DNA from: Gammaproteobacteria bacterium
GTDB taxonomy: Bacteria > Pseudomonadota > Gammaproteobacteria > Tethybacterales > G965206325
NCBI GenBank assembly: GCA_965206325.1
Contig: OZ242208.1
Location: 294,326-358,325 of the forward strand
Reading direction: 5' to 3'
Length of the DNA stretch: 64,000 nucleotides
Position numbers and translations under genes: made by a program
The notes under the pieces: generated by a model
What the model was told of the DNA's origin: nothing
Database searches by the model: none
The model's input: only the letters and a program-made list of their open reading frames with translations
Shown: one piece after another, positions 10,404-57,600 of the stretch
Layout: each line of letters opens with the position of its first letter
How positions within the stretch are numbered: the first letter of the stretch is position 1

Positions 10404-11213
10404 ATGTCGCGAATTGCCGACGCTTTCGCCAATGCCAAAATTGAATCTTCCGCCCATCGGCGGGCGCTGCTGATTCCGTTTGTCACCGCCGGATTCCCAA
10501 CGCTGGAATCCACCGCCCCCTTGCTGACAGCCCTCGCCGACGGCGGCGCCGACATCATTGAATTAGGCATTCCCTTTTCCGACCCCGCCGCCGATGGAAT
10601 CGCCATCCAGCGGGCTTCCGAAATCGCCCTCAAAAACGGCGCGACGCTTAAATTCGCCCTAAGCGAAATTCGCCGATTCCGCAAAAACGGCGGAACGACT
10701 CCCCTCGTGACGATGGGCTACGCCAACAGTTTTCTCGCATATGGAATTTCCCAATTCGCCCGCCAAGCCCAAGAAGCGGGCGTTGACGGCGCGATTGTGG
10801 TGGATCTTCCCGCTGAATCCTCCGCCGAATGGCGCGAGGCTTTTTCCGCCGCCGGACTTGACCTTATTCTGCTGGTTTCGCCGACGACAACGCCATCGCG
10901 CATGAAATTAATCGCGCAGGCGGCAAGCGGCTATTTGTATTATGTTTCATTGAAAGGCGTGACCGGCGCGAATAATTTGGATGCCGATTCCGTCCGCGCG
11001 CAAATTTCCGCCCTTGCTGAAATTTCGGATTTGCCGATTGCCGTCGGCTTTGGCGTGCGCGATTCCGCCCGGGCGAAAACGCTGGGAAAAATGGCGGATG
11101 CGGTCGTCGTCGGCAGCCGCCTGATTGAATTAATTGAAGAATCGCCGCCGTCGGAATGGGCGAATGCGGCGCGGCAATTTACCGCTAAATTGCGGTCGGC
11201 GATGCAATCATGA
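10404..11213 (+). CDS. trpA: tryptophan synthase alpha chain
   Basis: LIPFVTAGFP...ELGIPFSDPAADG motifs; 269 aa. Confidence 0.9.
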   Translation: MSRIADAFANAKIESSAHRRALLIPFVTAGFPTLESTAPLLTALADGGADIIELGIPFSDPAADGIAIQRASEIALKNGATLKFALSEIRRFRKNGGTTPLVTMGYANSFLAYGISQFARQAQEAGVDGAIVVDLPAESSAEWREAFSAAGLDLILLVSPTTTPSRMKLIAQAASGYLYYVSLKGVTGANNLDADSVRAQISALAEISDLPIAVGFGVRDSARAKTLGKMADAVVVGSRLIELIEESPPSEWANAARQFTAKLRSAMQS

Positions 11214-12082
11214 ATTGGCTCAGCGACATTCTGCCCGGAATTAAAAAACGCCCGCGCGCCAAAAAAACGGTGCCGGAAGGCGTATGGTCCAAATGCGAAA
11301 ACTGCGGACGACCAATTTACGGCGAGGATTTCGCCAAAAATCTGTGGGTCTGCGGCGACTGCGATTTTCATCATCGTATTTCCCCCGAATCGCGCGCGAA
11401 AATTTTGTTTGACGGCGGCGAATGGACGGAAATGGGCGGCGGCGTGCGTCCGCGCGATTTCCTTAAATTCACGGATTCCAAGCCCTACACCGAGCGGCTC
11501 AAAGCCGCCCAAAACGGCGATTCCAAGCGCGAAGCAGTTTCCATCTTCACCGGAAAAATTAAAGGACGCGAATGCGTAGCGGCGATTTTTGATTTCCGTT
11601 TTATGGGCGGCTCTATGGGCTCGGTCGTCGGCGAAAGATTCACGCGGGCGGTTGAAGCCGCCGCCGAGCGGCAGTCGCCTTTTATTTGCTTTTCCGCTTC
11701 CGGCGGGGCGAGAATGCAGGAGGGAGTCGCCTCGCTTTTGCAAATGGCGAAAACAACGGCGGCTTTGGCTTTGCTGGATAAAAATCATCTGCCGTTTATC
11801 AGCGTTTTAACCGACCCGACGACGGGCGGAGTCGCCGCCAGTTTCGCTCTTATCGGCGATATTGTCGTCGCCGAGCCGAAGGCATTAATTGGCTTCGCCG
11901 GGCCTCGCGTAATTGAGCAGACGGTCGGCAAAGAAAACGACAAAACCCCGCCGAATAATTTTCAGCGGAGCGAATTTCTGCTGGACCGCGGCGCGATTGA
12001 CCAAATCGTCGACCGCCGCGAAATGCGGACGACTCTCGCTAATTTTGCGGAAATGCTGATGTTTTCCAAATCGCGCGGCTGA
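11210..12082 (+). CDS. accD: acetyl-CoA carboxylase carboxyltransferase beta subunit
   Basis: N-terminal C4 zinc finger (CENCGRPIY...CGDC) plus carboxyltransferase motifs. Confidence 0.9.
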   Translation: MNWLSDILPGIKKRPRAKKTVPEGVWSKCENCGRPIYGEDFAKNLWVCGDCDFHHRISPESRAKILFDGGEWTEMGGGVRPRDFLKFTDSKPYTERLKAAQNGDSKREAVSIFTGKIKGRECVAAIFDFRFMGGSMGSVVGERFTRAVEAAAERQSPFICFSASGGARMQEGVASLLQMAKTTAALALLDKNHLPFISVLTDPTTGGVAASFALIGDIVVAEPKALIGFAGPRVIEQTVGKENDKTPPNNFQRSEFLLDRGAIDQIVDRREMRTTLANFAEMLMFSKSRG

Positions 12083-12090
12083 GCGGAAAA

Positions 12091-13380
12091 ATGCAAATCG
12101 GCGAAGGTCCCCAACTCGCCGCCGCACTCGCCCGCGCGGAAAAAAATCATCCGCAGGCGGTGGATTTGGGACTCGCCCGCGTGGATGCCGTCCGCCGCGA
12201 AATGGGCTTGTCGCTGAAAATGCCGATTGTCACAGTCGGCGGCACCAACGGCAAGGGCAGCGTTTGCGCGATGCTGGAAGCCATTTTATCTTCCGCCGGC
12301 TACAAGGTCGGCTGCTTTACATCGCCGCATCTTCTGCGATTCAACGAGCGAATTCGCGTCGGCGAAAAACCGCTGGACGACCAGCCCATCTGCGACGCCC
12401 TCGCTCATGCGGAATTCGCGCAAAAAAAAATCGGGGCGACTCTGACTTTTTTTGAATTCGCCGCCCTCGCCGCCGCCGAATGCTTTGTCCGAGAAAAAGC
12501 CGATGCCGCCATTTTGGAAGTCGGACTCGGCGGACGGCTGGACGCCGTCAATATTTTTTCGCCGACAATTTCCATCGTAACGACAATTGATTTAGACCAC
12601 GCCGCCTATCTGGGAAACGACCGCGAATCCGTCGGCAGCGAAAAAGCGGGGATTTTTCGCCCGAATCGTCCGGCGATTATCGCCGAAAAAAATCCGCCGA
12701 ATTCTCTTCTTGATTATGCAAAAAAAATCGGGGCGAAAATAATTCGCTTCGGCGAAGATTTTGATTGGGAAAAACAGGGCGCGCATTGGAATTTTCGCGG
12801 ACAAAAAGGCGTCCGCAGCGGCTTGCCGTTTCCATCTTTGCGGGGAATGCATCAATTGCAGAATGCCGCCGCCGCTATCGCCGCCGCAGAATCGCTTGCC
12901 GACGAATCATCGCTGTGGGTGTCGGCGGGCGACATTCGCAGCGGACTCCTGCGGACGGAATTGGCCGGACGATTTCAATCTCTGCCCGGGCAGCCGGCGA
13001 TTGTTTTGGATGTCGCCCATAATCCGCAGGCGGCGTCGGCTTTTGCGGAATCGCTTTTTCAGATGGGATTTTTTCCGCAAACCGTCGGCGTCTGCGGCTT
13101 GATGGCGGACAAGGACTGCGATGGAATTATCCGTCCCCTGCTGCCGAGAATTGATAAATGGCTGGCGATTCCGTTGGATATTCCGCGCGCATTGCCGGCG
13201 CGGAAACTCGCCGAAATTATTCGCGCGCAGGGCGGCGACGCCGAGGCATGCGAATCGACGGCGGAGGCGTTTTCGCGGGCGCACGCAATGTGCGATAAGC
13301 GTGATAGAATCGCCGCATTCGGCTCCTTCCACACCATCGCGGCATTTTGGACGGAAAGCGATGAGCAATTCCGCAGATAG
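12091..13380 (+). CDS. folC: dihydrofolate synthase / folylpolyglutamate synthase
   Basis: Mur-ligase P-loop VGGTNGKGS; 429 aa; accD-folC-dedD-cvpA-purF synteny. Confidence 0.9.
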   Translation: MQIGEGPQLAAALARAEKNHPQAVDLGLARVDAVRREMGLSLKMPIVTVGGTNGKGSVCAMLEAILSSAGYKVGCFTSPHLLRFNERIRVGEKPLDDQPICDALAHAEFAQKKIGATLTFFEFAALAAAECFVREKADAAILEVGLGGRLDAVNIFSPTISIVTTIDLDHAAYLGNDRESVGSEKAGIFRPNRPAIIAEKNPPNSLLDYAKKIGAKIIRFGEDFDWEKQGAHWNFRGQKGVRSGLPFPSLRGMHQLQNAAAAIAAAESLADESSLWVSAGDIRSGLLRTELAGRFQSLPGQPAIVLDVAHNPQAASAFAESLFQMGFFPQTVGVCGLMADKDCDGIIRPLLPRIDKWLAIPLDIPRALPARKLAEIIRAQGGDAEACESTAEAFSRAHAMCDKRDRIAAFGSFHTIAAFWTESDEQFRR

Positions 13381-20008: not shown

Positions 20009-20080
20009 AACAAAATGCGGCTTGTGCCGCGTGTCCAACTCACCGTGCATTTTTTTGAGTATTCGCACATTGTGGATTAC

Positions 20081-21595
20081 TTATTTGCGTTCCTTCTTGA
20101 TTTCCTGCTCGAGCAAGTGTAGCGAAGTTATTGTCGCTTTCTTGTCGGATTTCGGTAGTCTCTTGACAAGACTCTTCGCTCTTTCCAGCAGGGAATGCCA
20201 ATCATTGGTTCTGTGACGAAATTCCTCACGAGTCCAATTGATGTATGCACTTGCAAGATAAGTGTCACGATTGTCCTTGTCGCCCTTAAGTTGAGAGACG
20301 ACCTCCTTGTATGCATCTCTGCCCTCGGGTATTTTGCCTCTCCTGAAGTCAAGCAATCCTCGATTAGCGATAAGGCAAATCTTGGAAATCGGATCAAATT
20401 TGATAGTGCCGGATTTTGACAGCACTTCGCTGGCTTTTTCACACTTATCATCTCTTAAAAGAGAATACACGCGATTATTGAAGAGTGAATTATCTTGAGG
20501 GTATTTCTTCAACCCTTCCTCCGAGATTTTTCGGGCTTGTTTGAAATCCTCAAGCAGCTCGCAAGCGAGATACGACACTGCCTGATATGGTTTGAGAGCA
20601 AATGGTTGATCTTTTTTCCATGAAATGGCATTTTTCACCGCCGCGCGCCATTCTCCTTCATTAAAGAAATTGTTAAAGTTTGCCTCATGAGCATTCCTGT
20701 TCTCGCGCAAAATAGGGGATAGGTCATCAGCAAACCGCGCATTACTTTTTGCCCAAACAAGTTGGGCAATCGTGTTATCGTTTGGTGCTTTGGCTGATTT
20801 TCTGAAAAGCTGGTTCCCTTTTCTATGGCTACCACTTTTGCTTTCTAATGTTGCAATGCTCGCAGCCAACTCCGGTATGTGAGACAGGGGATAGCGATCA
20901 AGCATTTCAATCCCACGCTTGATAAATCGCGACGACTTTCCAAAGTGGTCAGAAGCGGCTATTTCTGTCGCTAAAAGCCATGGATTCCGGAGGATAATAT
21001 CCTTTTTTTTACGAAGGATATGGAGTCCGTATTTTTCTTGTTCAAGCGGTTTCTTCGGATCTGATATCCAAAACCTGACAGCGGCACGAATGATATGTCG
21101 GTCATAAGGTGCCAGTTGCAATGCCACTTTCATAGGGCGTTCTGCCTTTTTCCAAAGGCCATTTTGCGCATATAAAAGCGACAGATCCACCCAATAGTAA
21201 GGATTAAGTGGGAATCTGGCTAGGGATTTTCTGATTATCCCAATTTCTTTTGGAGGTAGAGATTCTTCCTCTATCCTATCGGAATCGCCCAATATTTTTT
21301 TGGAGGCACGGCGCACCAAGGGCGAAATGAAACGCCCCTCATTCAGGATAAAAGTGGCCGCATCTTTCGCCAACTCATGGTTCCCGTAAACGATGGCCGA
21401 CCCTATCAGATCCAGCGCAAAAGACAGTCCGCGATTCTCTCGCCATTCCTCGGCACGCTGTTCAAGGAATCTTTCATCAAAAACGATCGGGTTTTTGATT
21501 GCGTTGACCGGCTCCAGTTCCAGCGACTTAAGGGCGAATGTCACACTTCGCCAATAAGGGATTACTTTCCGATCCTGTGGTTCATTCGTAATCAT
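20081..21595 (-). CDS. alpha-helical (TPR-like) repeat protein of unknown function, downstream partner of the Ser/Thr kinase
   Basis: 504-aa ORF in a low-GC region, helical-repeat composition, 4-nt ATGA overlap with the upstream kinase gene; no recognisable catalytic motif. Confidence 0.5.
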   Translation of the reverse strand: MITNEPQDRKVIPYWRSVTFALKSLELEPVNAIKNPIVFDERFLEQRAEEWRENRGLSFALDLIGSAIVYGNHELAKDAATFILNEGRFISPLVRRASKKILGDSDRIEEESLPPKEIGIIRKSLARFPLNPYYWVDLSLLYAQNGLWKKAERPMKVALQLAPYDRHIIRAAVRFWISDPKKPLEQEKYGLHILRKKKDIILRNPWLLATEIAASDHFGKSSRFIKRGIEMLDRYPLSHIPELAASIATLESKSGSHRKGNQLFRKSAKAPNDNTIAQLVWAKSNARFADDLSPILRENRNAHEANFNNFFNEGEWRAAVKNAISWKKDQPFALKPYQAVSYLACELLEDFKQARKISEEGLKKYPQDNSLFNNRVYSLLRDDKCEKASEVLSKSGTIKFDPISKICLIANRGLLDFRRGKIPEGRDAYKEVVSQLKGDKDNRDTYLASAYINWTREEFRHRTNDWHSLLERAKSLVKRLPKSDKKATITSLHLLEQEIKKERK

Positions 21596-22653
21596 TCGAT
21601 CAATCTCCGCTCGAAAGATGTTGCAAGGCGATCAAAAATAGATTCGTAACGCCCGGCATCGAATTTCTTCAAATGCCTTTTATCACCCCGACGCTCCGGA
21701 TTGGGGTGACAGAGCTCTTTGACCAGCGAAATTAAATCACTAGCGGAGTTCCCCTGAACTGTTAATAAATCTTGTGGCGCCTTTTCCTCAAGGTTATCCA
21801 GAATGTCGCCGAACGCCATTTCCAGCCCTGGCAGAATTTCTTGAAAAGTCCCCTGCCATTGTTGGGGAGTTCGGTTGTATGGCAATTTTTGAAGCAATAA
21901 GGGCGTTGTCCCCTGTCCCATGAGCAAGAAAAGGGCCATGCTTCCGAGCAGATAGAAATCGATATCGAATTTTAGTGGAGCGTACCCGGATCGATATAGC
22001 ATCTCCGGCGGTTTATAAGCAGGATCGCCTGCTTCTTTCTCGGTTTTAACGAGAGGATGCTTTTTTCCGGTAATTTCGGCATGTCCCAAATCGCCGATTT
22101 TTATCGAGGTTACCGGATTTCCTCGATCCATAACAAGAATATTGGACGGCTTCATATCTCGATGAGAAATTAATTCTCGGTGCAGCTCTCTGATTCCGCC
22201 CGCAATTCGGTGGAGTGCTCTCATGCTGAGAGCGTTATCCCAAGTCGTATGCGGATCAACAGACCGGAGGTCGCCATCGGCCCTTTCGAACAAGATATAC
22301 GAGACATCGGGATATTGGAATCTCTCCTTTCTGAGAAGTCCATCCCCCATGATTTGGATGACTCTTTTCACTTGAGTGGATTGGCAGCTGCGCAGCAAGT
22401 CCACTTCGTAGTTAAACGCCGAAGTAACCTGTTCCATCTTGCGAGGAACGGAATCAAAATCATCAGGAATCCGGAAAATGGCGGCATAATCCAGCACTTT
22501 GACGAAGCATCGTGCATCGCCTTTCTCTGCGGCATAGCCAACAGAAAAAACGCCACCCGAACCGGTCGGCGGCATTTTTTGGGTTATTCGCCATCCATCC
22601 TTAAGGGTTTCCCCCAAAAGATGGTGGGCGGGGTGTTGAGTGATGCTTGTCAT
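21592..22653 (-). CDS. eukaryotic-like (Hanks-type) Ser/Thr protein kinase
   Basis: Gly-rich loop GSGGVFSV, VAIK-like FVKVL, HRDMKPSNIL catalytic loop, DLG (DFG-equivalent) and PPE motifs; low-GC region. Confidence 0.7.
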   Translation of the reverse strand: MTSITQHPAHHLLGETLKDGWRITQKMPPTGSGGVFSVGYAAEKGDARCFVKVLDYAAIFRIPDDFDSVPRKMEQVTSAFNYEVDLLRSCQSTQVKRVIQIMGDGLLRKERFQYPDVSYILFERADGDLRSVDPHTTWDNALSMRALHRIAGGIRELHRELISHRDMKPSNILVMDRGNPVTSIKIGDLGHAEITGKKHPLVKTEKEAGDPAYKPPEMLYRSGYAPLKFDIDFYLLGSMALFLLMGQGTTPLLLQKLPYNRTPQQWQGTFQEILPGLEMAFGDILDNLEEKAPQDLLTVQGNSASDLISLVKELCHPNPERRGDKRHLKKFDAGRYESIFDRLATSFERRLIE

Positions 22654-22930
22654 TTCAGAGAAATATAGCAGATAATTGTCAAGCAGTCAAATTTTCTGGA
22701 ATTTGGCGAATAAAACAGTCCGTTGCTGTTGTTTTTTTGTCACCTCGCCGGACGCGGATAATCGGGTTGCCTTTCCGCAAGCAGATCTTCCACGGTGAGG
22801 ATTTGAATCTTCGGCGGCGTGTCCGCCAAACCAGATTAAAACGCCCATCGCCGCCCTTTGGTTATTGACGGCGGTGACGAAATCGCGTAATTTGCCAACG
22901 CCCACTTACCGCAAATGGAAAGCGCAATAG

Positions 22931-23032
22931 GATTGTTCACACCCGGAATTGGGGATTACCCCAACGAGACCGAAAAATGAAAAAAGCACTCACCGGGATT
23001 GTTCACACCCGGAATTGGGGATTTACCCCAAC
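22931..23032. repeat. two 35/36-bp direct repeats (gattgttcacacccggaattggggatt(t)accccaac), each with a 6-bp hairpin ttgggg/ccccaa, separated by a 31-bp unique segment; begins 11 nt past the tnpB stop
   Basis: Exact repeat copies at 22931-22965 and 22997-23032, read directly from the sequence. CRISPR-like repeat-spacer-repeat or IS right-end / omega-RNA region. Confidence 0.5.
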
Positions 23033-23042
23033 CCGACCGCGT

Positions 23043-24398
23043 CTAAGTATTACTCAGGGCGGGTGATTCGCGCTTCACAGGCCGGGCAACCCCGCCACCA
23101 TCTCTGCGCGCAACCGCTTTGGATTTCTCCAATGCGGCATCGACCAATCCGGCCGTTAAAATGTTCACCGCCGCGTTAACATCCGCGTCGGCTTCATAAC
23201 CGCAGGCAACGCACTTAAATGCCTCGCGTTTGCGGTTTTCCGCCGCGACCATCCCGCATTTAGGACAAGTCCGGCTGGTGTTCTTGGGATCGACGAGTTT
23301 GACTTTCCCGCCGCGCTCTTCTACTTTGTAGATAATCATCGTCCGCAGCATTCCCAATCCGGCGGCAAGCAGCGCGCGATTCAGCGCGGCTTTGGTGCGG
23401 ACATTCCTGCCCGGATTATCGGCGTCGCCTTTCGCCGACGCCGTCATATTCAAAAGTTTCAAATCCTCCATCGCGATAAAGCCGTGCTTGACAGCGACGG
23501 CTTTGCTCAAATGATGCAAAGCATTATGGCGGCAGTCGCGAATCTTGTGCGACGCTTTCGCATGACGCTGCTGCGCGATTTCATAGCGGCGGCTGTATCG
23601 CGGCTTGCGCTTTTTCCACGACTTGCCTTCGTTTTGCTGTGCGCGCAATTCTTTGAGTCGCTTTTCGGCTTGGCCTCGCGTTTCGCTTTTGCCGTCCCAG
23701 CCGACTTCGCGGCGCAATGCGGCTTCGCGCTTGCGCGCCATCGCCCTTTCATACCGACGCTTGCGGGCGGCGTGGCGCTTTTGATTCCGCTCGGCGTAAT
23801 GCTGCGAAATGCGATACAAAGTGCCGTCGCTCGCCGCCGCCGTTTTCTTAATGCCGACATCCAAACCGACCGGCTCGCCGTTATGCATCGGCGCATCCTT
23901 TTCAAAAGTAAAAGGAATGCAGACAAACCAGCGGTCGCCATCGCGAGTGACATTCACCGTCCCCTGCTTGCCATCGGGCAAAGGAAGATGCATTCGCATT
24001 CGGACGAGTCCGATATTCGGCAGGCGAATGCGATTGTTATAAATCGGGCATTTGCCCGCATCAACGCGGAAGTAATCCGGCGTAATGCCTTTTGCGGAAA
24101 AGCGGGGGAATCCTTTCTGTCCTTTGAAAGCGGCGACAAAATCGCCGTTCAATGCGCGGGCGGCTTGCCCTTGCGCGTCCGCGGATACCGCGCAAAACCA
24201 ATTGATATTGCCGCGCAATTCCGTCCGCATTTGATAGCCGCGTTTGCGGTCGTATTTTTCGCCCGCCTCAAACCGCGTTTTATTGTCGGCGATTAATTGA
24301 TTGCGAAACCATCGGCAAGCCCCCGCCGTGCGGGCCAGCCGACGCCGCTCGCCAACTCGCGGCATCAGCGGAAATTTATAAGTGCGGGTGATTTCCAT
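23043..24398 (-). CDS. tnpB: TnpB (IS605 OrfB family RuvC-like RNA-guided nuclease)
   Basis: RuvC-I GLDVGIK, RuvC-II IAMEDLK, zinc finger CPKCG...CVACG, RuvC-III DADVNAAVNI; 451 aa with a basic insertion. Confidence 0.85.
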   Translation of the reverse strand: MEITRTYKFPLMPRVGERRRLARTAGACRWFRNQLIADNKTRFEAGEKYDRKRGYQMRTELRGNINWFCAVSADAQGQAARALNGDFVAAFKGQKGFPRFSAKGITPDYFRVDAGKCPIYNNRIRLPNIGLVRMRMHLPLPDGKQGTVNVTRDGDRWFVCIPFTFEKDAPMHNGEPVGLDVGIKKTAAASDGTLYRISQHYAERNQKRHAARKRRYERAMARKREAALRREVGWDGKSETRGQAEKRLKELRAQQNEGKSWKKRKPRYSRRYEIAQQRHAKASHKIRDCRHNALHHLSKAVAVKHGFIAMEDLKLLNMTASAKGDADNPGRNVRTKAALNRALLAAGLGMLRTMIIYKVEERGGKVKLVDPKNTSRTCPKCGMVAAENRKREAFKCVACGYEADADVNAAVNILTAGLVDAALEKSKAVARRDGGGVARPVKRESPALSNT

Positions 24399-24407
24399 TT
24401 CGCGGAT

Positions 24408-24436
24408 ATTATAACCTCCTGTTTTTAATTTGTCAA
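24408..24436 (-). promoter_or_regulatory. consensus sigma70 promoter of tnpB (TTGACA - 17 nt - TATAAT), leaderless-like 14-nt spacing to the ATG
   Basis: Reverse complement of 24408-24436 reads ttgacaaattaaaaacaggaggttataat. Confidence 0.5.
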
Positions 24437-24442
24437 GGGAGG

Positions 24443-25263: not shown

Positions 25264-26154
25264 CTATTCCTCCGCCTGAAGAATTTTGAAGACGGCGGAG
25301 GAATCCAGATCCCCCCCCCCTCCTTCTATTAATTTGTCAAGGCGATGCAGAAAGATTTCCGCGCCCGGCAGGGGGGCGGAAAATTGTTCGGCGTTTTCCA
25401 ATGCGATTTTCATATCCTTGCGATGCAAAGCGGCTTTGAATCCGGGGGCGTAATCGCCGGAAAGCATTCGCGCCGCATGAATTTCCATCACCTTGCTGGC
25501 GGCGAATCCGCCCATTAATGCTTGGCGGACGCGCGCCGCATCAACGCCGTTTTTCTGCGCGAGGCGAAACGCTTCGGCGATTCCTTCTATGGTCGCGCCG
25601 ATGACAATTTGATTGCACGCTTTCGCCGTTTGTCCGGCGCCGCTTTCGCCGACAAGCGTGACGGTCTTTCCCATTGCATTAAACAAAGGAAGCGCGCGCG
25701 CAAATGCTTCTGCATTGCCGCCGACCATAAAAGAAAGCGCGCCTTCTATCGCGCCTTTTTCGCCGCCGGAAACAGGAGCGTCAAGGAGTTCAATTTTTTT
25801 TTCGGCGAGAGTCGCAGCCATTTGGCGGGTCGCCGCCGGGGAAATTGTGCTCATATCGGCGACGATCGCTCCTTCTTTTGCGCCGTGAATGACGCCGTTG
25901 CCGCCGAGCAGAATCTCCTTCACATCAGGCGTGTCCGAAACATTAGTGAAGATGAATTCGCATTGGCGGGCGAGGTCGGCCGGAGTCGCCGACGCCTGCG
26001 CGCCCTGCGAAATTAAAGATGCGGCCTGCTCCGGTCGGCGCGCAAAAACAATCAGCGGATAGCCCGCGCGCAGAAGATTCGCCGCCGCCGGCTTTCCCAT
26101 AATGCCGAGCCCGATATAGCCGACAGTCGGCTTTTTATTTTCCGTCATCATCAT
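25264..26154 (-). CDS. NAD(P)-dependent 3-hydroxyisobutyrate / 2-hydroxy-3-oxopropionate reductase family dehydrogenase
   Basis: GYIGLGIMG Rossmann motif and the 6-phosphogluconate-DH-like NAD-binding fold pattern. Confidence 0.8.
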   Translation of the reverse strand: MMMTENKKPTVGYIGLGIMGKPAAANLLRAGYPLIVFARRPEQAASLISQGAQASATPADLARQCEFIFTNVSDTPDVKEILLGGNGVIHGAKEGAIVADMSTISPAATRQMAATLAEKKIELLDAPVSGGEKGAIEGALSFMVGGNAEAFARALPLFNAMGKTVTLVGESGAGQTAKACNQIVIGATIEGIAEAFRLAQKNGVDAARVRQALMGGFAASKVMEIHAARMLSGDYAPGFKAALHRKDMKIALENAEQFSAPLPGAEIFLHRLDKLIEGGGGDLDSSAVFKILQAEE

Positions 26155-27308
26155 TCCTTTGAATTGCGAATGCGCGATTGTAGCGCATTTTTTGCGGCGG
26201 GATATCGGGAGAATTTGTGGCTGTCGCCAATCACTAAATCCCGATATTTGCGATGAATGAAAAGGACTTCGCGGCCGGCTTTAATTTCTTCCAAGACGCC
26301 GATGGCGCGCAATTCGCGCAGATATTTTGCCGCAGTAATGCGCGAGCATTTCAAAGTTTGCATTAAATTTCGAATGCGGCAGTAGGGCTGCATAAAAATG
26401 CAGTTGGCGATGGATTCCGAAGTCGACGGCGGCCAAGAATGCCGGCGAATATGCTCGGCGGTGTGCGACATTAAATTGCAGACCGCGTCAATGCGGGCAA
26501 TCATCCATCTTGATGTTTTTTCAATTGCGTCCAGCATGTAGAGAATCCAAGGTTCCCATTCGGCGCGGCGGGTGACGCCGTCCAAGAGTTTGTAATACTT
26601 TTCGCGGTAATTCAAAATGTGCCGGCTGAGATACAAAATCGGAATGTCAAGCAGTCCGCGCTCCATCAAATGCAGAATGTTGAGGATGCGCCCCGTGCGG
26701 CCGTTGCCGTCGGCGAAGGGATGAATGGCTTCAAATTGATAATGCGCGACCGCCATTCGCACAAGCGGATCAAGGGCGGGCTTGTCGGCGTGAATGAATC
26801 GCTCCCAGTTATCCAGAAGGTCAAGGAGCAATTTTTCGCCCTGCGGCGGCGTGTAGATGGGGCGTCCGTTTTTTCCCTGCAGGAATGTCCCCGGAATTCG
26901 GCGGACGGACATTGGCGCGCCTTTGATGATTTGGCATATTTCAATCGCCGTTTTTTTGCTTTGCGGATGGCCGCCGCGAATCAAATCGTGTCCGCGCCGC
27001 AGGGCGGTGCGATAGCGCAGCGCTTCTTTGGTGGCGGGATCGGTTTTGGAATCGTCCTCGCCGGAGTGGCGAAAAAGCGAATCGGCGGTGGTGACGATGT
27101 TTTCAATTTCAGAACTGGCCTGCGCTTCCAGCAGCGGAATTGTGTTAATCAGAACCGTCTGGTCGGGCAGGCGTCGTCCGGCCTGTTTTAATTCGCCCAA
27201 GGCGGCGCGGGCGGCGATGCATTTTTTCAGCACGGCGACGGTTTCCAGCGGCTTGCGCGGCGGCAGGAGCGGGAGATCGTCGTAGGGCTTGCGGGGATTC
27301 ATTCGCAT
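26151..27308 (-). CDS. fic: Fic family adenylyltransferase with N-terminal inhibitory helix and C-terminal winged HTH
   Basis: Fic motif HPFADGNGRTGR, inhibitory motif SSEIEN, C-terminal HTH-like region. Confidence 0.85.
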   Translation of the reverse strand: MRMNPRKPYDDLPLLPPRKPLETVAVLKKCIAARAALGELKQAGRRLPDQTVLINTIPLLEAQASSEIENIVTTADSLFRHSGEDDSKTDPATKEALRYRTALRRGHDLIRGGHPQSKKTAIEICQIIKGAPMSVRRIPGTFLQGKNGRPIYTPPQGEKLLLDLLDNWERFIHADKPALDPLVRMAVAHYQFEAIHPFADGNGRTGRILNILHLMERGLLDIPILYLSRHILNYREKYYKLLDGVTRRAEWEPWILYMLDAIEKTSRWMIARIDAVCNLMSHTAEHIRRHSWPPSTSESIANCIFMQPYCRIRNLMQTLKCSRITAAKYLRELRAIGVLEEIKAGREVLFIHRKYRDLVIGDSHKFSRYPAAKNALQSRIRNSKE

Positions 27309-50786: not shown

Positions 50787-50870
50787 GGTGCCGATGCCCA
50801 GATTCGAACTGGGACGGGTCGCCCCACTGCCCCCTCAAGACAGCGTGTCTACCAATTTCACCACATCGGC
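50787..50870 (-). tRNA. tRNA-Leu (anticodon GAG), type II with long variable arm; CCA not fully encoded
   Basis: Reverse complement folds as acceptor GCCGATG/CATCGGC, D arm GTG-AAATTGGTAGA-CAC, anticodon stem CTGTC/GGCAG with loop TTGAGGG, 13-nt variable arm, T arm CCCAG-TTCGAAT-CTGGG; secG-tRNA-Leu linkage as in E. coli. Confidence 0.85.
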
Positions 50871-56145: not shown

Positions 56146-56190
56146 GCATCAAGGCGGGGCAAGCGCAGTGCATTCCGCCTTCTCGGCGGC

Positions 56191-56241
56191 TTGACAAATT
56201 AAAAACAGGAGGTTATAATAAGCGCGAAATGGAAATCACCC
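56191..56241 (+). mobile_element. solo remnant of the IS605-family left end: promoter (TTGACA-17-TATAAT) plus the first 4 codons of tnpB, truncated at a poly-C tract
   Basis: ttgacaaattaaaaacaggaggttataata-gcgcgaaatggaaatcacc matches the reverse complement of 24391-24440 with 2 mismatches. Similarity ends at 56241. Confidence 0.55.
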
Positions 56242-56268: not shown

Positions 56269-57600
56269 TCATACTGTCAGCAGCAGAAATTTCCGCTCCC
56301 ATGGAGTGACGACTTTGCGGTAATTTTCCAATTCGGTTAATTTCACCGAAACATACAAATCCACAAAGTGACTGCCGAAGTATTCGCGCAGGGCTTGGGA
56401 TTCGCGCAGATTAGTGATGGCGTCTTCAAAGGTTGTCGGCATGCCGGTGGGACGCGGCCAGGAAACCCCCTTAACCTGCGGCGCGGGCGATATTTTATTT
56501 TTAATTCCCAAGTAGCCGCACAGCAGCGAGGCGGCCATCGCCAGATAAGGATTCGCGTCCGCCCCGCAGATTCTATTTTCAATGCGGCGGGAATCCGGGC
56601 TGCCCATTCCGGGCACGCGGAATCCGACTGTGCGATTGTTCACTCCCCAATGCATATTAGCGGTGGGATGCGGGGTTTTAATCCGCCGAAAAGAATTGAT
56701 GTTGGGCAGATAAAGCGCGGCCGCCTCCGGCAGATACTGCTGCAGTCCGCCCAAATAAGCGCGAAAGAAATCGCTCTGGGAGCCGTCGGGGGCGGAAAAG
56801 AGATTGCCGCCGTCGCGGTCCCAAATGCTCTGGTGAATATGAAAGGAGCTGCCCGGTTCGGTTTCCACCGGCTTGGCCATAAAAGTGGCGGTAACGCCGT
56901 GCTTGATGGCGGCTTCGCGGACGCATCTTTTATACATCAGCACTTGGTCGGCCATCGCCAGCGGTTCGCCGTGCTTAAAATTGATTTCAAATTGAGCGAC
57001 GCCTTCTTCGTGAATCAAAGTATCCACTTCCAATTCCTGCGCTTCGGCGAATCGGTAGATATCTTCTATGATCGCTTCAAATTCGTTGATGGCGTCCAAA
57101 CTGAAGGGCTGCCTGCCGAATTCGGGCCGGCCGGTGCGTCCGACCGGAGGGCGAAGGGGATTATCCGGATTATTGTCGCGGGCGGCGAGATAAAATTCCA
57201 ATTCGGGGGCGACTATCGGACGCCACCCTTCCCGCTTGAAAAGCCGCAGAATTCGCCGCAAAACAGTGCGGGGGGCGTAGCGAATTAAATGTCCGCCGCG
57301 CGTGAGGCAGTCGCAGATAATTTGCGCCGACGGCTCCAGCGCCCACGGAATCGGAAAGCAGCCGGCGACATCGGGGCGCAGAATCATATCGGCGTCGGTT
57401 TCGTCCAAAAAATCCTCCTGCAGTCCCCAGTCGCCGGTGACGGTCTGCCCGATAACATTCTCCGGCATGCGCACGGCATCCAGCAGAAATTTATCGGCGG
57501 GAATAATTTTTCCGCGCGGAATGCCGGTGAGGTCGGGAATCAGCACTTCCACTTCCGCGATGCCCCGCGCGCGCAGCCAGTCGGCAACGGCTTTTTTCAT
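56269..57600 (-). CDS. glutamine synthetase family protein (GlnA / gamma-glutamyl-polyamine synthetase-like)
   Basis: GS catalytic-domain motifs (SFHIHQS, NRxxxxR, ANPYLA); 443 aa. Confidence 0.8.
   Translation of the reverse strand: MKKAVADWLRARGIAEVEVLIPDLTGIPRGKIIPADKFLLDAVRMPENVIGQTVTGDWGLQEDFLDETDADMILRPDVAGCFPIPWALEPSAQIICDCLTRGGHLIRYAPRTVLRRILRLFKREGWRPIVAPELEFYLAARDNNPDNPLRPPVGRTGRPEFGRQPFSLDAINEFEAIIEDIYRFAEAQELEVDTLIHEEGVAQFEINFKHGEPLAMADQVLMYKRCVREAAIKHGVTATFMAKPVETEPGSSFHIHQSIWDRDGGNLFSAPDGSQSDFFRAYLGGLQQYLPEAAALYLPNINSFRRIKTPHPTANMHWGVNNRTVGFRVPGMGSPDSRRIENRICGADANPYLAMAASLLCGYLGIKNKISPAPQVKGVSWPRPTGMPTTFEDAITNLRESQALREYFGSHFVDLYVSVKLTELENYRKVVTPWERKFLLLTV

Follow-up and report, generated by a model that had tools for sequence, protein, structure and literature searches.

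The window analysed here is a stretch of 64,000 nt from a genome assembled as Gammaproteobacteria bacterium (contig OZ242208.1, positions 294,326 to 358,325), and all positions given below refer to this whole stretch. We studied in it a pair of genes on the minus strand, of which the first codes for a Hanks-type Ser/Thr protein kinase and the second for a partner protein that resembles a solenoid of tetratricopeptide repeats (TPR). The pair lies together with the remnant of a DNA methyltransferase (MTase) between the genes mltB and cinA, and next to an element that carries tnpB. The features of the locus are as follows.

20081..21595, minus strand: TPR-like all-helical solenoid of the PDC-M71B family, 504 amino acids (PADLOC, family search and AlphaFold2, AF2)
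21592..22653, minus strand: Hanks-type Ser/Thr protein kinase of the PDC-M71A family, 353 amino acids (PADLOC, Pfam, alignment and AF2)
21592..21595, minus strand: ATGA stop/start overlap of 4 bp, read on the sequence as ...atc gaA TGA tta..., translational coupling of kinase and partner
22662..22690, minus strand: candidate sigma-70-like promoter, TTGACT-17-TATATT with TG (consensus scan, 10 of 12 matches)
20017..20030, minus strand: terminator-like GC hairpin with a T-run (consensus scan)
22743..22935, minus strand: 3′ remnant (pseudogene) of an N6/N4 DNA methyltransferase (tblastn with the MTase of the conspecific genome L001)
22930..24440, minus strand: TnpB-only element of IS200/IS605 type with the tnpB reading frame at 23043..24398, right border of the variable cassette
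20022..22929, no strand assigned: strain-variable cassette slot (blastn of the window against the conspecific genomes L001 and L068), which here holds the pair and the MTase remnant

The initial annotation had described the pair as a translationally coupled operon of lower GC content than its surroundings, placed directly beside an insertion sequence (IS) element within otherwise housekeeping genes, and our results agree with it on each of these points. The coordinates and lengths of the two open reading frames (ORFs) and their ATGA overlap came out the same, and a GGAG is present about 10 nt 5′ of the partner ATG. GC content is 0.466 in the pair as against 0.546 in the 12 kb flanks and 0.548 in the whole window, and the profile runs at 0.44-0.48 over the pair and at 0.53-0.60 to either side. 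The adjoining IS element is represented by the TnpB ORF (23043..24398, minus strand). On the mltB side the flank consists of purF, a Cys/Met-metabolism enzyme, a MATE transporter and SLT_2/mltB, and on the other side of a cinA-like gene, a dehydrogenase and proS, all of them housekeeping apart from one defence-flagged, SoFic-like Fic gene. The candidate promoter ends 9 nt 5′ of the kinase ATG and is positioned within the divergent cassette, and the terminator-like hairpin is placed between the partner stop and the convergent mltB stop.

Both proteins match one catalogued candidate family. The kinase matches the PADLOC-DB model PDC-M71A with an E value of 6e-84 (280 bits, residues 1-349 on model positions 1-347 of 352), and the partner matches PDC-M71B with an E value of 5.5e-106 (353 bits, residues 3-492 on model positions 4-501 of 515); a second M71B model gives 1.5e-35. 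Since both match the family strongly over their full length, kinase and partner are not chance ORFs. The gene order and strand (A then B) are also as in PDC-M71. Judged by these profile matches the locus is a member of PDC-M71, from which it shows no structural differences and is set apart by its lost adjacent methylase. PADLOC-DB v2.0.0 lists PDC-M71 among its 145 "phage defence candidates", all of them untested (Payne et al. 2024 bioRxiv 10.1101/2024.01.29.577857). It is entered in the supplementary table of that work as cassette CAS_00219, FAM_02024>>FAM_01393, with a count of 31 and the remark "Assign as candidate PDC-M71", and the basis of its nomination was that copies are embedded in BREX, DISARM or type I restriction-modification systems (10.1101/2024.01.29.577857). 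The pairing had at first been taken as undescribed, which is not correct in view of this 2024 entry, although the statement stands as far as function is concerned. Among other candidates of the series PDC-S05, PDC-S70 and PDC-M05 protected when tested and other candidates of that study did not (PMC12881386), and the validation rate of other tested PDC candidates is roughly one-third to one-half.

The family is large and the pairing in it is strict. At 50% identity, an exhaustive search with the partner gave 2,684 representative clusters with E ≤ 0.001, of which 1,477 reach E ≤ 1e-30, and the best 150 relatives among the matches listed are about 500 amino acids long and aligned end to end. As a 79-sequence partner alignment was too diverse for pattern scanning, a subset of 29 sequences was used, and a genome scan with the pattern DPWLLA[AT]E[IL] gave 49 loci. 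By record titles at least 11 phyla are represented (Nitrospirota, Latescibacterota, Acidobacteriota, Planctomycetota, Pseudomonadota, Bacteroidota/Rhodothermota, Spirochaetota, Actinomycetota, Chloroflexota, Gemmatimonadota and Vulcanimicrobiota). Wherever upstream DNA was available, the gene directly 5′ of the partner on the same strand codes for a kinase of this family, and the A-then-B arrangement was found in 54 of the 54 loci analysed. The gap at the junction is between -20 and +15 nt in 53 of these 54, the commonest value (17 of 54) being the -4 overlap that is also present in the window. The GC content of the pair is below that of its flanks in 49 of the 54 loci, with a mean difference of 5.8 points. 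As the pair is GC-poor family-wide, low GC is not a mark of recent arrival here, and we ruled it out as proof of recent transfer.

Genes that are so tightly coupled and always co-inherited would also suit a toxin-antitoxin (TA)-like addiction module, in which growth would be arrested by the kinase as toxin and the TPR protein would neutralise it, and which stabilises mobile DNA more than it blocks phages. Carriage on plasmids and integrative elements, the existence of kinase toxins (e.g. the HipA-like DS-6A) and the lack of a separate effector gene are in line with this explanation. However, the kinase is a Hanks-type eukaryotic protein kinase (ePK) and no HipA family was among its Pfam matches at E ≤ 0.1, and a conserved solenoid of 500 amino acids is atypical as a labile antitoxin. 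In our assessment addiction is an unlikely explanation. As an observation on the family, the kinase is truncated, frame-shifted or split by an insertion in four genomes (L012, L017, L019 and L049, the halves being about 1 kb apart in L017 and L049), which indicates occasional kinase inactivation. The partner is whole in L012, L017 and L019 despite the broken kinase, and in L049 it is itself split into two ORFs. No orphan intact kinase was seen among the family loci. Neither the broken kinases beside an intact partner nor this absence of orphan kinases decides the matter of addiction, and TA and defence roles are compatible.

The kinase matches Pfam Pkinase (PF00069) with 83 bits against a cut-off of 31.7 (E 3.1e-23). 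The residues K52 (in FVKV), E83, H164-R-D166-M-K168-P-S-N171, D188-L-G190 and P-P-E217 are all present. An alignment with 33 relatives shows no variation at K52, E83, H164, D166, K168, N171, D188 and G190, and in it PPE217 is invariant or nearly so. The glycine loop reads G31-S-G-G-V-F36-S-V, with a family consensus of TGGxFSVGY in which the third Gly has become an invariant Phe, and on the alignment it is a variant glycine-rich loop and not a lost one. The earlier statement that every catalytic motif is in place is thus right for the Lys (K52), HRDxKPxN, DLG and PPE and has to be corrected for a strict GxGxxG, where the third Gly is F36. The AF2 model has a predicted local distance difference test (pLDDT) value of 89.7 and an ePK fold, and its top Foldseek matches are the kinase domains of CDK, MAPK and PknB. 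There is no extra domain in the kinase, which adds to the fold a family-specific N-terminal stretch (with an invariant W21) and a C-terminal helix (residues 333-352), so that the last 100 residues form the C-lobe and the terminal helix. The family is mostly non-RD, with HQD in 44 of 52 sequences (25 of 34 in a second set), and DLG replaces DFG. HRD marks a rare subgroup, which includes the window copy and the allele of the conspecific genome L001. No conserved Ser/Thr was found in the activation segment of the family alignment. The kinase is predicted to be active.

The partner has a single canonical TPR match (TPR_14, 31 bits against a cut-off of 23.5, residues 135-174), and its AF2 model (pLDDT 92.6) is a continuous all-alpha solenoid of 28 helices. 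Its structure and sequence matches are generic TPR superhelices (OGT, APC/C, BBS4, Tom70, Ctr9 and IFIT/IFIT5) with template modelling (TM) scores of at most 0.44. Sequence-profile searches of the PDB gave no specific solved relative, and no enzymatic domain was detectable in domain, sequence-profile and structure searches. Remote-homology searches, which had been proposed for both proteins, therefore returned an ePK fold for the one and a generic TPR superhelix for the other, and the description of the partner as a helical-repeat protein with no enzymatic motif is borne out. Twelve residues are invariant in 79 diverse members (R9, P13, R170, P205, W206, E242, N274, Q278, E304, A305, W326 and Y429), and two motifs, DPWLLAAE (204-211) and P[TN][ED]NxxAQ (271-278), are signatures of the partner. 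The conserved polar residues lie mostly on every second helix (H166, H205, H241, H273, H303, H369, H402 and H443), and from this alternate-helix periodicity we infer that they line one continuous face, a putative binding groove. In the model this putative groove would be made up of R166/R170/R174, D/N204-P-W206, E242, N274/Q278/W281, E304, W326, N373/N374 and E457. Conservation peaks in the middle of the protein and is lowest at the C-terminal end and in one loop, and no hypervariable sensor domain was seen in the family conservation profile.

The slot between mltB and cinA was compared among three conspecific genomes, the window strain, L001 and L068 (the last two from one ENA sample), and three slot states were found. 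The flanks of the slot are 94-99% identical among the conspecifics, and its interior is 75% identical (L001) or unrelated (L068). In the window the slot has kinase and TPR partner (allele 1), the MTase 3′ remnant and TnpB. L001, with flanks 98.8% and 96.3% identical to the window, has allele 2 of the pair (75% identical as DNA, 67% and 65% as proteins), an intact N6/N4 MTase of 466 amino acids directly 5′ of the kinase and no TnpB. L068, with flanks 97.5% and 94.2% identical, has a protein of 620 amino acids with Sel1 repeats and DUF2971, then the same TnpB, and is without kinase and TPR partner; its homology to the window restarts exactly at 22930. In L069, which is not conspecific (MltB 54% identical), nothing comparable is present and synteny stops at mltB. 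The host is of an isolated betaproteobacterial lineage, the best non-conspecific MltB relatives being only about 54% identical and the named matches at about 50% identity coming from Rhodocyclaceae, Azonexus and Propionivibrio. An MltB scan of the genome collection gave pattern matches with no host relative confirmed among them, the scan of the JGI metagenomes gave nothing either, and the species is apparently absent from both. Looked up by exact sequence, the MltB, the CinA-like protein and the partner of the window gave no entry. Two findings had been named at the outset as refuting a defence reading, namely confident homology of the partner to a housekeeping family, and a pair that is kept at this locus in the whole clade and has the GC content of core genes. 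We found no housekeeping homology, and at this site L068 has a different cassette, L069 nothing and L001 a diverged allele. As the pair is not conserved at the locus across the clade, an accessory reading is favoured. It may be added as an observation on the slot that the L068 protein (10997-12859) contains six or more Sel1 repeats and ends in a DUF2971 domain (Sel1 1.3e-43, DUF2971 4.1e-5) with a weak PADLOC match to PDC-S31 (7e-5), and is another repeat-plus-unknown-domain candidate.

The slot comparison also bears on ordinary cellular signalling, by which the pair would be a Ser/Thr kinase and a TPR adaptor for metabolism, envelope or stress that stands here by chance. Kinase and TPR together are a common signalling architecture (PknG has both in one chain), and this speaks for such a role along with the housekeeping flanks and the fact that most family loci are without obvious defence neighbours. 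Yet the pair is absent at the site in the conspecific L068 and in the next relative L069, deeply diverged alleles occur in one species between flanks of 94-99% identity, and the distribution over phyla is patchy and mobile. The GC content is moreover atypical in the 49 loci mentioned, and no conserved substrate or regulator gene is found nearby. On balance we consider ordinary signalling to be quite improbable.

The MTase of L001 (7438-8838, 466 amino acids), with which the remnant was found, matches Pfam N6_N4_Mtase (1.6e-45) and PADLOC MTase_II (5.8e-49) and has a C-terminal extension of about 150 amino acids outside the assigned domains. Its residues 436-466 match 22835..22743 with 100% identity, and its residues 380-418 match 22935..22828 with 56% identity in a different frame. 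The window retains the last 87 or so codons of an L001-type MTase. At 22930 the remnant borders directly on the right end of the TnpB element, which stands in place of MTase codons 1-380. L068 has the element in this position too, and L001 is without it. The survival of the pair after the loss of the MTase, together with the roughly two-thirds of family loci that have no MTase, argues that the pair is autonomous and does not have a restriction-like activity dependent on self-methylation.

On looking at the three nearest ORFs per side we found them heterogeneous across the family loci, which rules out a fixed third gene. Downstream neighbours match the models mad2 (8 cases), MTase_II (5) and PglX (4), and three match type III MTase, HmaB or DUF1156-MTase models; upstream neighbours include three HmaA/DrmD-type helicases and three N6_N4 MTases. 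In a local phmmer screen an MTase and/or an SNF2 helicase was present within 10 kb in about 17 distinct loci, i.e. about a third. By chance an MTase is expected within a few genes in about 1% of loci, going roughly by general MTase gene density, and because of this low expectation the methylase/helicase association looks real. In four loci (L010, L017, L018 and L053) the pair is sandwiched between an SNF2 helicase and a large MTase, which echoes the embedding that nominated PDC-M71, and in two (L006 and L057) it is next to Hma-like genes. The check for defence-island enrichment that had been suggested for the pair therefore has a positive side, the MTase/SNF2 company in about a third of the loci, and a negative one, the remaining two-thirds or so without a recognisable defence neighbour.

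Mobile contexts are also frequent in the neighbourhood. One Mob_Pre/DUF3987/PriCT element carries the pair with two MTases and a Schlafen-AlbA protein, another mobile context has a PLD-SNF2 helicase with an Eco57I-type MTase, and integrases and IS66 are among the neighbours. The pair is on 10 IMG/VR contigs, where the neighbours include a Mu-type transposase, a capsid protein or a D5 primase, and on three plasmids, of Arthrobacter (beside MobF and IS30), R. etli (beside an integrase, TniQ and a NACHT protein) and Deinococcus. RefSeq labels the plasmid copies "hypothetical" or "LPS kinase InaA family".

Such company allows the reading that the pair is an accessory regulator or guard of an adjacent methylase/helicase system (Hma, BREX, DISARM or MADS-like), like PglW or Mad6, and is an orphan in the window. 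The intact N6/N4 MTase directly 5′ of the kinase in L001, the 17 or so loci with MTases or SNF2 helicases and the four with embedding all fit this role, as do the original discovery of PDC-M71 by embedding in such systems and the weak similarity of the kinase to mad6 and PglW models. But about two-thirds of the loci are without a methylase or helicase nearby, and the MTase types vary (N6_N4, Eco57I-like, C5 and type III), which means that there is no fixed third component. Also, the pair is intact with its own candidate promoter after the MTase loss. The kinase scores far under the NCBIfam equivalog cut-offs (37 against 460 bits for MAD6 and 18 against 990 for PglW), by which membership in Mad6 or PglW was rejected as well. 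A role as accessory to a methylase system has, in our view, a low probability.

The two alleles of the pair were compared by a 60-nt identity profile of the window against L001, which gave the following segments.

22802-22743: 100% to L001, MTase tail
22742-21930: 40-82% to L001, promoter and kinase amino acids 1 to about 240
21929-21090: 87-98% to L001 with a dip to about 75% at 21329-21210, kinase amino acids from about 245 to 353 and partner amino acids 1 to about 160
21089-20020: 37-75% to L001, partner amino acids from about 170 to 504 and a short spacer past the stop
below 19960: 97-100% to L001, mltB side

The breakpoints fall inside both genes. In the divergent parts the synonymous divergence (dS) is saturated (> 1) and the non-synonymous divergence (dN) is 0.2-0.4; the overall dN/dS is about 0.27 for kinase and partner, and dS of mltB is 0.035. 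The saturated dS and the dN/dS of about 0.27 point to old, selectively maintained alleles that were joined by recombination. Rapid in-situ evolution as the source of the divergence is ruled against by the saturated dS, and imported old alleles fit better. The co-inherited central block, i.e. the kinase C-terminus with the partner N-terminus, is a hint of a protein-protein interface. Kinase residues 245-330 (21664-21921) have 20 non-synonymous and 4 synonymous differences from L001 (dN/dS 1.4, neutrality p = 0.8), which differs from the 9 non-synonymous and 12 synonymous changes of partner residues 1-80 (Fisher p = 0.006, a comparison of two sequences only). This part of the kinase lies in a tract of otherwise low divergence. 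Many of its changes are radical (W to R, G to W, G to R, A to E and D to H), and it may be a specificity or docking surface, or it may be under relaxed constraint. An elaborate scheme can be drawn from this pattern, which we offer as speculative and rather unlikely. By it the pair would be a phospho-signalling immune receptor, in which a mostly non-RD Hanks kinase is bound by its C-lobe and C-terminal helix to the N-terminal TPR repeats. It would guard DNA-methylation-based immunity by sensing an infection or anti-restriction cue in the groove and respond with kinase-driven abortive infection, and its specificity would be adjusted at a fixed chromosomal hotspot, where recombination exchanges the N-lobe of the kinase and the C-terminal repeats of the TPR protein between alleles.

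From all these results we consider it reasonably probable that the locus is a conflict or defence module. This was also the reading of the initial annotation, and it is supported by the membership in PDC-M71, the strict unit in at least 11 phyla, the mobile contexts, the methylase/SNF2 company and the lack of conservation at the locus; what fell is the undescribed status, and low GC is no specific sign of recent acquisition here. The full statement, that the pair is an accessory, horizontally exchanged two-gene PDC-M71 conflict module, most likely anti-phage, in which the TPR protein senses or regulates and the kinase is the effector, is one to which we give slightly better than an even chance. 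In this mechanism a single, translationally coupled mRNA would yield kinase and TPR protein at a fixed ratio, and the two would form a complex, in which the TPR solenoid may act as sensor or regulator through its conserved polar groove. The kinase would be the output, since it is catalytically intact with no other domain and no other effector gene is present. On an infection cue it would phosphorylate host or phage proteins and so bring the infection to a halt, growth arrest or abortive infection being the probable way. The module would be autonomous yet often travel with DNA-methylation-based defences, and in this species it may have arrived next to a methyltransferase that has since been lost in the window strain to the TnpB element. 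The specific scheme of a sensor and a kinase leading to abortive infection is tentative, and we think it possible but doubtful. Complex formation, the sensor and effector roles, the trigger, the substrates and the anti-phage activity are what we infer for the pair.

Several points weigh against a defence role. Literature searches gave no experimental work on PDC-M71 and no characterised defence pair of a Hanks kinase and a TPR protein, and among other candidates of the same catalogue PDC-M63 and PDC-S04 tested negative (PMC12409345). The partner was not found in cultured phage genomes, and there is no canonical toxic effector at the locus. Island enrichment is moderate, the loci without a recognisable defence neighbour being counted within three genes. 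A groove that is conserved across the family fits a conserved ligand or the kinase better than direct sensing of diverse phage proteins. Lastly, the window copy could be impaired: it has lost the adjacent methyltransferase, and it has N204 (20984-20986) at a position that is Asp in 77 of 79 relatives, among them the L001 allele. One further family member, P0142, shares the Asn at 204, and the residues that are invariant in the family are all present in both window proteins.

With these last points goes the explanation that the window copy is a decaying remnant, no longer functional after the TnpB-associated MTase loss and heading for replacement as in L068. The MTase is indeed reduced to a remnant, D204N lies in a near-invariant DPW motif, the dN/dS of 1.4 in the kinase C-lobe segment is compatible with relaxed constraint, and the cassette has been replaced in L068. 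But both ORFs are intact and of full length with the invariant family residues kept, promoter-like and terminator-like sites are retained, the overall dN/dS is about 0.27, and the Asn at 204 has its parallel in P0142. We regard decay as very improbable, and the defence module remains our preferred reading of the pair.

The pair can be set beside several known systems. Stk2, an abortive-infection kinase of staphylococci, and PD-T4-6, a single-gene kinase defence of E. coli, resemble it in having a Hanks-type kinase as the presumed output without a separate toxic effector. They are, however, single-protein systems with extra regions of their own, whereas the pair in the window has an obligatory TPR partner of 500 amino acids. 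Membership in either was rejected, because Stk2 gives 28.9 bits (1.2e-7) over residues 74-247 and the best PD-T4-6 model 46.8 bits (5.3e-13) over 113-247, i.e. the kinase core only, as against 280 bits for PDC-M71A. Both may serve as a working analogy for an effector role of the kinase, not as relatives in the sense of family membership. Mad6 (MADS), PglW (BREX type 2/Pgl) and MkoA (Mokosh) share with the pair a kinase domain in defence loci that contain a DNA methylase, and weak PADLOC matches of the kinase were found to mad6 (7.6e-15) and MkoA (5.4e-16). These are large multidomain proteins in fixed multi-gene systems, whereas the methylase neighbour of our pair is variable and often absent.

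Immune proteins with TPR sensors (Avs/STAND NTPases, BcTir/Tpr and the eukaryotic IFIT1/5) have a long TPR solenoid as the presumed recognition module, and IFIT was among the partner matches. A two-gene anti-phage operon of TIR and TPR proteins has been reported (10.1101/2023.05.26.542521). The pair in the window differs from these in having neither a STAND NTPase nor a TIR, its matches are generic (the TM scores given above), and its groove is conserved rather than hypervariable. HipBA and DS-6 resemble it as two-gene systems of a kinase and a non-enzymatic partner, and in DS-6 of DefensePredictor the kinase activity is required for phage defence (PMC13092281). They belong to another kinase superfamily, while in the window the partner is a TPR solenoid instead of a DNA-binding antitoxin and the gene order starts with the kinase. 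A HipA-type toxin was rejected as identity of the kinase, the Pfam domain being Pkinase with no HipA family at E ≤ 0.1.

What is new here is the size and strictness of the family, its association with methylases and helicases, the three-state hotspot with mosaic alleles and the TnpB-associated loss of the MTase. With about 1,500 clusters at 50% identity, PDC-M71 is one of the larger uncharacterised two-gene families tied to defence loci. If it is anti-phage, it would represent an immune module whose output is a kinase and which has a TPR partner of its own; such a design has so far been validated only in single-protein form (Stk2 and PD-T4-6). The three conspecific genomes can be read as a natural experiment inside a single species, and in part inside a single sample, with two mosaic alleles, with and without the MTase, and a strain with another cassette. 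The mosaic pattern points to parts that are exchanged (kinase N-lobe and TPR C-terminal repeats) as against parts that are kept together (kinase C-terminus and TPR N-terminus).

Some minor features of the window may be described. The Fic-domain protein of the cinA-side flank (26151-27308, minus strand) matches PADLOC SoFic with 8e-111, and its distance from the pair is 3.5 kb. All three conspecific genomes have it in this position, and it behaves as a species core gene outside the variable cassette. Rfam gave nothing credible within or around the operon or the TnpB element, and at the latter there was no Rfam match for an omega-RNA. Elsewhere, ARAGORN calls a tRNA-Leu(GAG) at 50787-50870, and an Rfam scan of the whole window at the gathering threshold gave no family, tRNA included, so that the two tools disagree on this point. 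The TnpB protein has all TnpB domains, namely HTH, OrfB and zinc-ribbon TNB, with matches to NCBIfam guided_TnpB (1.6e-69) and to Pfam OrfB_IS605 and Cas12f1-like_TNB, and no TnpA ORF was found in 22930-24440. Just 5′ of tnpB there is a perfect TTGACA-17-TATAAT at 24436..24408, and the right end of the element has tandem 33-nt repeats at 22930-22962 and 22996-23028 (66-nt spacing), each with a TTGGGG...CCCCAA hairpin. A solo copy of 52 bp, 96% identical to the tnpB promoter and first four codons (ATGGAAATCACC), is present at 56190-56241, adjoining the glutamine synthetase gene at 56269-57600. It resembles an orphaned left end of this TnpB element.

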